Shown one piece after another: positions 54,931-57,900 of a DNA stretch of 64,000 bases. The stretch lies in NCBI RefSeq assembly GCF_041886205.1, contig NZ_CP169029.1; one strand, written 5' to 3'. A program made the position numbers. This stretch comes from Escherichia coli (lineage in GTDB: Bacteria; Pseudomonadota; Gammaproteobacteria; Enterobacterales; Enterobacteriaceae). Each line of letters starts with the position of its first letter. Position 1 is the first letter of the stretch.

Positions 54931-57900
54931 TAATGATGTGCCACATCCGGCATGGTATGCCGGATGTGGCGTATGCTGATAAGACGCGCCAGCGTCTTAT
55001 CAGGCAACCGGCTCGGGCGTTAGATGTCGGATGCGGCGTGACCGCCTTATTCGGCCTACGGGGTGCCGCACTTCACAGCATTTTAGCGAACTACCGCGTT
55101 GTCAATTTTCTCTTCCGCCTTCCAGACGCGGTACTTCACATCTACATTGTCTGGCGTATACACCACGATCGGCTGCTTGCTGTTGTAACGCAGCATTCCA
55201 GCATCGCCCAGATACGCGGTGACAAATTTCTTCTCTTTCTTGCCATCCGGGCAGGCCATCATCGTGGAAACCGGCGAGCTAACTTTATCAAAGACATAAT
55301 AATCATAGCCCCAGCCTTCCAGCATTTTGTTTTCCAGCTTCCCGCCGAGACGATGCAAATTGCAATCGACTTCCAGCGTCTGACCGATTAACAGTTCTAC
55401 TTTCAGGGTAGATTCATCTTCTTGCGGGGTTAACTGAATCACCTGACGCTTCATGCCTTTTTCAGCTTGTGGATAAGGCGCGATTTTTTCCAGTGGCTGG
55501 ACGCTTTCTGCCGCCCAGGCGGAAGTGGTAGCGAAAGCGGCAAACAATACTGCAGGTAGAATGGTCTTCATTTTTTTGCTTTCCTTCTTCATTTATAGGT
55601 TTCACCGATGATGTCGCTGAAGGTTAACATATTCATCAGATTTATTAATTTGCTTTATGAATAACTTAAAGAATATTCAGACAATTTTACCTGCTCTTTT
55701 AGTGTTAAATTCTAATGAGAGAGCAAACCAGCAGAAATATCTCTGGTGAATTAATCGCTATATAAATATATTTATAACCATTTGAAATGTGAGCAAAAGC
55801 CCGTTTTTGCCACGCTTCCCGCCACTCTTTTGATCCTGCTACAGGTTTTACCTCGATCGGGGTATGCATCTTTGACACATCCTTTAATATCTTAGCGGCT
55901 ATAAAAATGGCTTATTAATTATGCGGTTTATTTGGTCGCTCTCAATTTTCAGAGCGCGTTAATGATGGAAGGTCAATGTGAAGATTGATGCATCCCGTCG
56001 GGGCATACTCACTGGTCGCTGGCGCAAAGCCAGTAACGGTATCCGTCCGCCCTGGTCCGGTGATGAATCTCATTTTCTGACCCATTGCACCCGCTGCGAC
56101 GCCTGTATTAATGCTTGTGAAAACAACATTCTGCAACGCGGCGCGGGCGGCTATCCGAGCGTTAATTTCAAAAATAACGAGTGCAGCTTCTGTTACGCCT
56201 GCGCGCAGGCTTGCCCCGAATCGCTATTTTCTCCGCGCCACACCAGGGCCTGGGATTTGCAGTTCACCATTGGGGACGCGTGCCTGGCGTATCAGTCTGT
56301 TGAATGCCGCCGCTGTCAGGATAGCTGTGAGCCAATGGCAATTATCTTTCGCCCGACGCTCTCCGGGATCTACCAGCCGCAACTTAATAGCCAACTTTGC
56401 AACGGATGTGGAGCATGTGCAGCCAGCTGTCCGGTATCAGCCATAACTGCGGAGTATCTCCATGCACACTAACTGGCAAGTTTGCAGCCTGGTCGTGCAG
56501 GCCAAAAGCGAACGAATTTCAGACATCAGCACCCAACTGAACGCCTTTCCCGGCTGTGAAGTTGCTGTCAGCGACGCGCCGAGCGGTCAGTTGATTGTGG
56601 TGGTGGAAGCAGAAGACAGCGAAACGCTGATCCAAACCATTGAGTCAGTACGCAACGTAGAGGGCGTGCTGGCGGTGTCGCTGGTTTATCACCAGCAGGA
56701 AGAGCAAGGTGAGGAAACACCATGAAACTCAGTCGTCGTAGCTTTATGAAAGCTAACGCCGTTGCGGCCGCTGCGGCGGCTGCCGGTCTCAGCGTGCCGG
56801 GCGTTGCCCGCGCCGTTGTTGGTCAGCAGGAAGCCATCAAATGGGATAAAGCGCCGTGCCGTTTCTGCGGTACTGGTTGCGGCGTTCTGGTCGGAACGCA
56901 GCAGGGACGTGTGGTGGCCTGTCAGGGCGACCCGGACGCACCGGTTAACCGTGGCCTGAACTGCATTAAGGGCTATTTCCTGCCCAAAATCATGTACGGT
57001 AAAGACCGTTTGACGCAGCCGCTGCTGCGTATGAAAAACGGTAAATATGACAAAGAAGGCGAATTTACCCCAATCACCTGGGATCAGGCCTTCGATGTGA
57101 TGGAAGAGAAATTCAAAACCGCCCTGAAAGAAAAAGGGCCGGAATCGATCGGTATGTTCGGTTCTGGTCAGTGGACTATCTGGGAAGGTTATGCCGCGTC
57201 CAAGCTGTTTAAAGCGGGCTTCCGTTCGAACAACATCGACCCGAACGCGCGTCACTGTATGGCGTCGGCAGTAGTTGGCTTTATGCGTACCTTTGGTATG
57301 GATGAGCCGATGGGCTGCTATGACGACATCGAGCAGGCTGACGCGTTTGTGCTGTGGGGCGCAAACATGGCGGAAATGCACCCGATCCTCTGGTCGCGCA
57401 TCACTAACCGTCGTCTCTCTAACCAGAACGTCACCGTGGCGGTGCTTTCTACCTACCAGCATCGTAGCTTCGAGCTGGCGGATAACGGCATCATCTTTAC
57501 GCCACAGTCTGACCTGGTGATCCTGAACTACATCGCCAACTATATCATTCAAAACAATGCGATAAATCAGGACTTCTTCAGCAAACACGTTAACCTGCGC
57601 AAAGGGGCGACGGACATCGGCTACGGTTTACGTCCGACCCATCCGCTGGAAAAAGCAGCGAAGAATCCAGGTTCTGACGCCTCCGAACCGATGAGCTTTG
57701 AAGATTACAAAGCCTTCGTTGCTGAGTATACGCTGGAAAAAACCGCTGAAATGACCGGCGTACCGAAAGACCAGTTAGAACAACTGGCGCAGCTGTATGC
57801 CGATCCGAACAAGAAAGTCATCTCCTACTGGACGATGGGCTTCAACCAGCATACTCGTGGCGTGTGGGCCAACAACCTTGTCTACAACCTGCACCTGCTG

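Follow-up and report, generated by a model that had tools for sequence, protein, structure and literature searches.

The sequence analyzed here is a 64,000-nucleotide stretch of Escherichia coli DNA (hereafter the window), and the portion of interest is the 406-nt intergenic interval at 55572-55977 that separates the divergent genes eco and napF and is bounded by the eco start codon on one side and the GTG start codon of napF on the other. The eco gene (55083-55571, minus strand) encodes ecotin and starts with an ATG at 55571-55569, and napF (55978-56472, plus strand) encodes a 164-amino acid protein and is the first gene of napFDAGHBC; both assignments combine the ORF list with the K-12 annotation (b2209 and b2208, respectively). 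The locus and its flanking genes are those of the K-12 napF (aeg-46.5) region, with the order mqo, eco, yojO, napF, napD and napA common to the window and K-12 MG1655. Alignment of the two intervals gave 99% identity; they differ only by three substitutions (55674, 55752 and 55853) and by an indel of 1 nt in a T-run near 55602. The interval is also widespread: among 5426 complete E. coli genomes, 5421 have it, in every case on the chromosome. A 60-nt core that spans the two main regulatory sites described below is present in its K-12 form in 4962 of these 5421 genomes and in the form of the window in 444, these two haplotypes together making up 5406. RefSeq additionally annotates a small minus-strand ORF, yojO (55705-55869), that covers all four of the regulatory sites discussed below (NarP, FNR, CRP-like and ModE-like), which are assigned to the other strand. 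An Rfam search of 55400-56100 returned no RNA family.

A near-perfect palindrome, TACCTCGATCGGGGTA, occupies 55849-55864 on the plus strand and is centered at 55856.5. It is composed of the heptamers TACCTCG and CGGGGTA separated by AT, and this description, first given in the initial annotation, can be read directly from the window. Both heptamers fit the NarL/NarP consensus TACYYMT at positions 1 to 6 and are inverted with a 2-bp gap, which gives the palindrome the arrangement of a NarL/NarP site of the 7-2-7 type. Relative to the full consensus TACYYMT-N2-AKRRGTA there are two mismatches, namely a G in place of T at position 7 of each heptamer. The K-12 counterpart, TACCCCGATCGGGGTA, is a perfect palindrome, whereas that of the window retains 7 of 8 pairs as a result of a C-to-T change at 55853, which is position 5 of the left heptamer (TACCCCG in K-12). 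The two palindromes are thus identical at 15 of 16 bases.

Several counts were used to gauge how readily such a sequence arises by chance. The window holds 30 palindromes of 16 bp in which 7 or more of the 8 pairs match, versus 28.6 in simulated sequence, which is the chance rate, and matches this good to the full NarL consensus are not rare (3 versus 2.7 expected in the window). Near-perfect 16-bp palindromes with TAC...GTA ends were observed once versus 0.08 expected per window, and the pattern TACYY-N6-RRGTA was found twice in the window versus 0.29 expected. In the eight-sequence alignment described below, 13 of the 16 palindrome columns are invariant. A chance origin of the palindrome was considered and rejected. 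The literature counts napF as one of four reported 7-2-7 sites, the others being those of fdnG, nirB and nrfA, all of which share inverted TACYYMT heptamers that are spaced 2 bp apart and to which either of the two response regulators binds as a dimer (PMC2718512). Expression of napF is activated by FNR and NarP-P, with NarL-P blocking NarP-P, and a napF fragment from -85 to +19 suffices as a NarP-responsive reporter (PMC9262595). Binding of phospho-NarP and phospho-NarL to the palindrome of the window is predicted from this literature on the K-12 sequence.

Upstream of the palindrome, on the plus strand at 55830-55843, lies the 14-mer TTGATcctgCTACA (TTGATCCTGCTACA), which we assign as the FNR site of the napF P1 promoter and which is identical to K-12 at all 14 positions. 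The initial annotation had described a weak FNR-like element about 20 bp upstream with a good left half only, and this is borne out, as the two centers (55836.5 and 55856.5) are exactly 20 bp apart and the element matches TTGAT-N4-ATCAA at 7 of 10 positions, with 5 of 5 in the left half and 2 of 5 in the right half. Matches to the FNR consensus with three or fewer mismatches number 334 in the window. We scored the element with a symmetric PWM (position weight matrix) for which Table S6 of Myers et al. 2013 (PMC3688515) supplied the 63 ChIP-associated sites. Its score is -0.95 bits, to which the left half contributes +9.0 bits and the right half -9.5 bits, whereas no training site scores below 11.9 bits and the consensus reaches 21.5 bits; the element thus fails a PWM threshold test for an FNR site. 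This score places it at rank 479 of 63,987 window positions (top 0.75%) and fifth within the intergenic region, where four other 14-mers score higher. The degenerate right half-site that had been suspected from reading the sequence is real; it is also a conserved trait, as detailed below, and does not constitute counter-evidence.

A published PatSer score for napF is likewise short of its threshold (ln p of -5.37 versus -10.75), and functional FNR sites may fit the consensus only in part (PMC3688515). Failure at a threshold is thus compatible with binding, since functional sites can be partial matches. Sequence alone cannot tell the FNR element from background, and its identity as an FNR site consequently rests on its position, its conservation and published ChIP data. 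As a separate observation, the top FNR PWM match of the whole window, ATGATTTATGTCAA at 50989-51002 (14.9 bits), lies inside a 216-aa ORF (50700-51350) that is taken to be alkB. The table of predicted FNR sites in K-12 lists nothing at the corresponding position, and this match is probably a chance one created by a strain-specific coding change.

The position of both sites relative to transcription was derived from the palindrome. As the 7-2-7 site of napF has been located at -40 to -49 with its center at -44.5 (PMC4549865), simple arithmetic places the predicted P1 start at 55901, the palindrome center at -44.5, the FNR element at -64.5 and a 77-nt leader ahead of the GTG codon. This agrees with the FNR(-64.5)/NarP(-44.5) architecture that the initial annotation had given for napF. 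In K-12, the predicted start corresponds to 2303574 of NC_000913.3. A full-text literature search with the sequences of the sites, or with napF and the positions -64.5 and -44.5, returned nothing relevant. Work attributed to Darwin and Stewart in 1995, Darwin and coworkers in 1998 and Stewart and coworkers in 2003 reportedly defined a major promoter, P1, with FNR at -64.5 and NarP/NarL at -44.5, as well as a minor promoter, P2, with a start about 3 nt upstream of that of P1.

Two overlapping -10 candidates are present at 55886-55894 on the plus strand and were assigned by their spacing to the -44.5 site. The hexamer TAATAT (55886-55891) would direct a start at approximately 55898, and TATCTT (55888-55893) would direct the start at 55901; we take these to be P2 and P1, respectively, the names reportedly used in the 2003 study of Stewart and coworkers. 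The AATATCTTA block that contains both hexamers is invariant in all eight aligned sequences. A promoter scan of the napF (plus) strand found no sigma-70 consensus -35/-10 pair, which fits an activator-dependent promoter and leaves the start site uninformed by the scan. A perfect TTGACA does occur at 55872-55877, approximately -29 to -24 relative to the predicted P1 start, and no -10 element is in register with it. This hexamer is found only in Escherichia, with Citrobacter and Leclercia having TAACAC, AAACAC or TTACAC at this position. Within the napF leader, a terminator-like hairpin was called at 55923-55939, followed by TCTCAATTTT, and an inverted repeat, CGCTCTCAA/TTCAGAGCG, is located at 55937-55956. 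The leader sequence from 55923 to 55956 is not conserved in Citrobacter and has no match in Rfam.

Two additional candidate sites are situated farther upstream on the plus strand. The first, AAATGTGAgcaaaaGCCCGTTT at 55785-55806 (center approximately -105.5), is CRP-like and has three mismatches to AAATGTGA-N6-TCACATTT. Matches this close occur twice in the window versus 0.37 expected, and 18 of the 22 columns are invariant among seven Escherichia and Citrobacter sequences. Stewart and coworkers in 2009 are said to have placed a Crp site farther upstream than those of Fnr and NarP, and 55785-55806 is a putative assignment for it. The second, CGCTATATAAATATATTTATAACC at 55756-55779 (center approximately -133), is an AT-rich inverted repeat that contains a perfect palindrome at 55761-55776 and has 13 of 24 columns invariant in Escherichia and Citrobacter. 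A ModE site at about -133.5 was reportedly described by McNicholas and Gunsalus in 2002, and this repeat may represent that site. Activation of napF by ModE has also been reported (PMC8139620). The window and K-12 do not differ in the CRP-like and ModE-like sites, in the 20-bp spacing or in the -10 region.

Conservation of the region was assessed with an alignment of eight sequences from Escherichia (including E. albertii), four Citrobacter and Leclercia adecarboxylata. The orthologs were collected by a NapF search of genome contigs that gave at least seven true napF loci among the matches listed, with Salmonella, Yersinia, Vibrio and Pasteurellaceae being outside of this upstream comparison. 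The left FNR half TTGAT is invariant in all eight sequences and the right half retains C-AC- (3 of 5 positions). There are no gaps between the FNR element and the palindrome in any of the eight, so the 20-bp spacing is fixed. The aligned FNR element of E. albertii and Citrobacter scores lower still than that of the window, at -5.8 bits. Columns -71 to -7 are invariant at 48 of 65 positions, as compared with 109 of 278 in the whole upstream region (hypergeometric P of approximately 1e-10). Leclercia and E. coli share 38% identity in the part upstream of the FNR element, as compared with 80% in the part that runs from this element to the -10 region. In the Leclercia sequence, which is from a metagenome-assembled genome (MAG; L008, 1-1500), the place of eco upstream of napF is taken by a minus-strand ORF that is FolD-like. 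As the neighboring gene differs in Leclercia and identity rises at the FNR left half, conservation starts at the FNR site.

Published occupancy data bear on the same element. An FNR ChIP-seq/ChIP-chip peak assigned to napF/yojO is centered at 2301669 in U00096.2 (Table S5 of Myers et al. 2013, PMC3688515). Using an offset of 1978 between U00096.2 and NC_000913.3, which was checked with the apbE site (2309648 found at 2311626), the FNR element maps to 2301654-2301667 in U00096.2, with its center only 8.5 bp from that of the K-12 peak. FNR-dependent transcription of napF was further reported to need co-activation by NarP (PMC3688515). The supplements of the Federowicz 2014 ChIP-exo study contain no mention of napF. 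From the occupancy data of K-12 and the identity of the site in the two strains, 55830-55843 is predicted to be bound by FNR in the strain of the window as well.

An alternative explanation would be that the functional FNR site is located elsewhere in the intergenic region and that TTGATcctgCTACA is a chance match, which we regard as very improbable. The candidates for such a site, ATGATGTCGCTGAA at 55608-55621 and TTGGTCGCTCTCAA at 55932-55945, which are the higher-scoring 14-mers closest to either end of the region, do have higher PWM scores (5.6 and 3.1 bits, respectively, versus -0.95 bits), but both are far below the weakest training site and their centers are approximately 213 and 110 bp from the ChIP peak center. 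Both are also left out of the -85 to +19 fragment, which serves as a reporter dependent on FNR/NarP (PMC9262595). Additionally, the 55932 match is not kept FNR-like in E. albertii or in the two CCUG/Cu233 Citrobacter sequences, the 55608 match is outside of the stretch conserved in Leclercia, and the Leclercia stretch has no FNR match above -1.4 bits anywhere. Within approximately 290 nt upstream of napF, the FNR matches of the aligned orthologs do not exceed 3.6 bits, which argues that there is no better site elsewhere. The characterized site of K-12 therefore coincides with the element at 55830-55843, and this element is conserved, in agreement with the initial annotation. The napF promoter thus provides an example of an authentic FNR site that escapes a PWM scan and that is recovered only from the constant distance between it and the NarP palindrome, from its conservation across genera and from ChIP. 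As a side observation, we note that ATGATGTCGCTGAA is the top FNR-like match of the intergenic region and that the eco start codon lies about 40 nt downstream of it in the direction of eco.

The overlap with yojO raises the question of whether conservation of 55705-55869 is due to a YojO coding sequence and not to regulatory sites. Most E. coli genomes do carry the RefSeq yojO annotation over this segment, although in many of them it is labelled just as a hypothetical protein, and the frame is interrupted by a stop codon in two of the other sequences, namely those of another E. coli (L002) and E. albertii (L003). There is no equivalent yojO ORF in Citrobacter or Leclercia, yet the DNA blocks are conserved in both. 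These blocks are moreover discrete, coincide with protein-binding motifs and run past yojO into the -10 region. A coding origin of the conservation is therefore hardly credible, and yojO is probably an annotation artefact as opposed to a real gene. We give even less credence to the proposal that NarP does not activate through the palindrome and that this is mainly a NarL repressor/operator site or is recognized by some other regulator, for although NarL-P binds the napF palindrome and antagonizes expression (PMC9262595) and the final G of both heptamers departs from the consensus, activation of published napF reporters is NarP-dependent, NarP is reported to bind 7-2-7 arrangements only (PMC2718512), and a center at -44.5 overlaps a -35 region devoid of a usable -35 hexamer, a layout typical of an activator site.

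With these alternatives considered, we are confident that the eco-napF interval is the control region of napFDAGHBC, the operon for periplasmic nitrate reductase, and that FNR in a class I position together with NarP/NarL acts at P1. The control region of napF is a textbook class I FNR promoter that is co-activated by NarP and antagonized by NarL and that has been studied since the 1990s. The architecture is accordingly already known and the finding, while correct, is ordinary; its main worth is confirmation of the annotation, with little significance beyond this. The fdnG, nirB and nrfA promoters have FNR in a class II position (approximately -41.5) with the 7-2-7 site upstream, whereas at napF the 7-2-7 site is downstream of FNR. 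At napF, NarP activates and NarL interferes. A related arrangement is that of Haemophilus influenzae Rd, where Stewart and Bledsoe in 2005 are said to have described synergistic activation of napF by FNR and phospho-NarP, with a class I FNR site and a NarP site overlapping the -35 region. The sites in H. influenzae Rd are reportedly located at -81.5 and -42.5 with NarL and NarP equal in effect, as compared with -64.5 and -44.5 and antagonism by NarL in E. coli.

The mechanism that we propose takes the roles of the proteins from the literature; the exact position of the start, the reason for the weak half-site and the neutral character of the variant discussed below are what we infer. Under anaerobiosis, dimeric FNR would bind the weak site at 55830-55843 in its class I position at -64.5. 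In the presence of nitrate or nitrite, a phospho-NarP dimer would occupy the 7-2-7 heptamers at 55849-55864, overlapping the -35 region, and synergy between FNR and phospho-NarP would activate the activator-dependent P1 promoter from its predicted start at 55901. Phospho-NarL would compete for the same palindrome and antagonize activation, with the consequence that nap would be best expressed at low nitrate. The CRP-like and ModE-like sites upstream could add carbon-source and molybdate inputs, respectively. The conserved poor right half of the FNR site may serve to keep the action of FNR dependent on NarP.

The C/T polymorphism at 55853 is shared with other lineages. The exact T-variant 60-mer accounts for approximately 8% of the 5421 complete E. 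coli genomes, an O157:H7 strain among them, and a T at the aligned position is also found in E. albertii and Leclercia. As the change remains within TACYYMT and is present in these two species, it is most likely neutral. It is conceivable, although we consider it unlikely, that the T shifts the balance between activation by NarP and antagonism by NarL, which would give the lineages that carry it another nitrate-concentration profile of periplasmic nitrate reductase, and, as a related possibility, that the conserved C-AC- half of the FNR site has been selected to keep FNR binding weak, or on account of a second factor, and is not merely tolerated. Variation within the palindrome is also seen in two of the Citrobacter sequences (L004 and L005), which have TACCCCAATTGGGGTA. 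Here a G-to-A and a C-to-T change at the innermost positions, aligned to 55855 and 55858, are paired such that a perfect palindrome is kept, and this retention of symmetry fits binding by a symmetric dimer.
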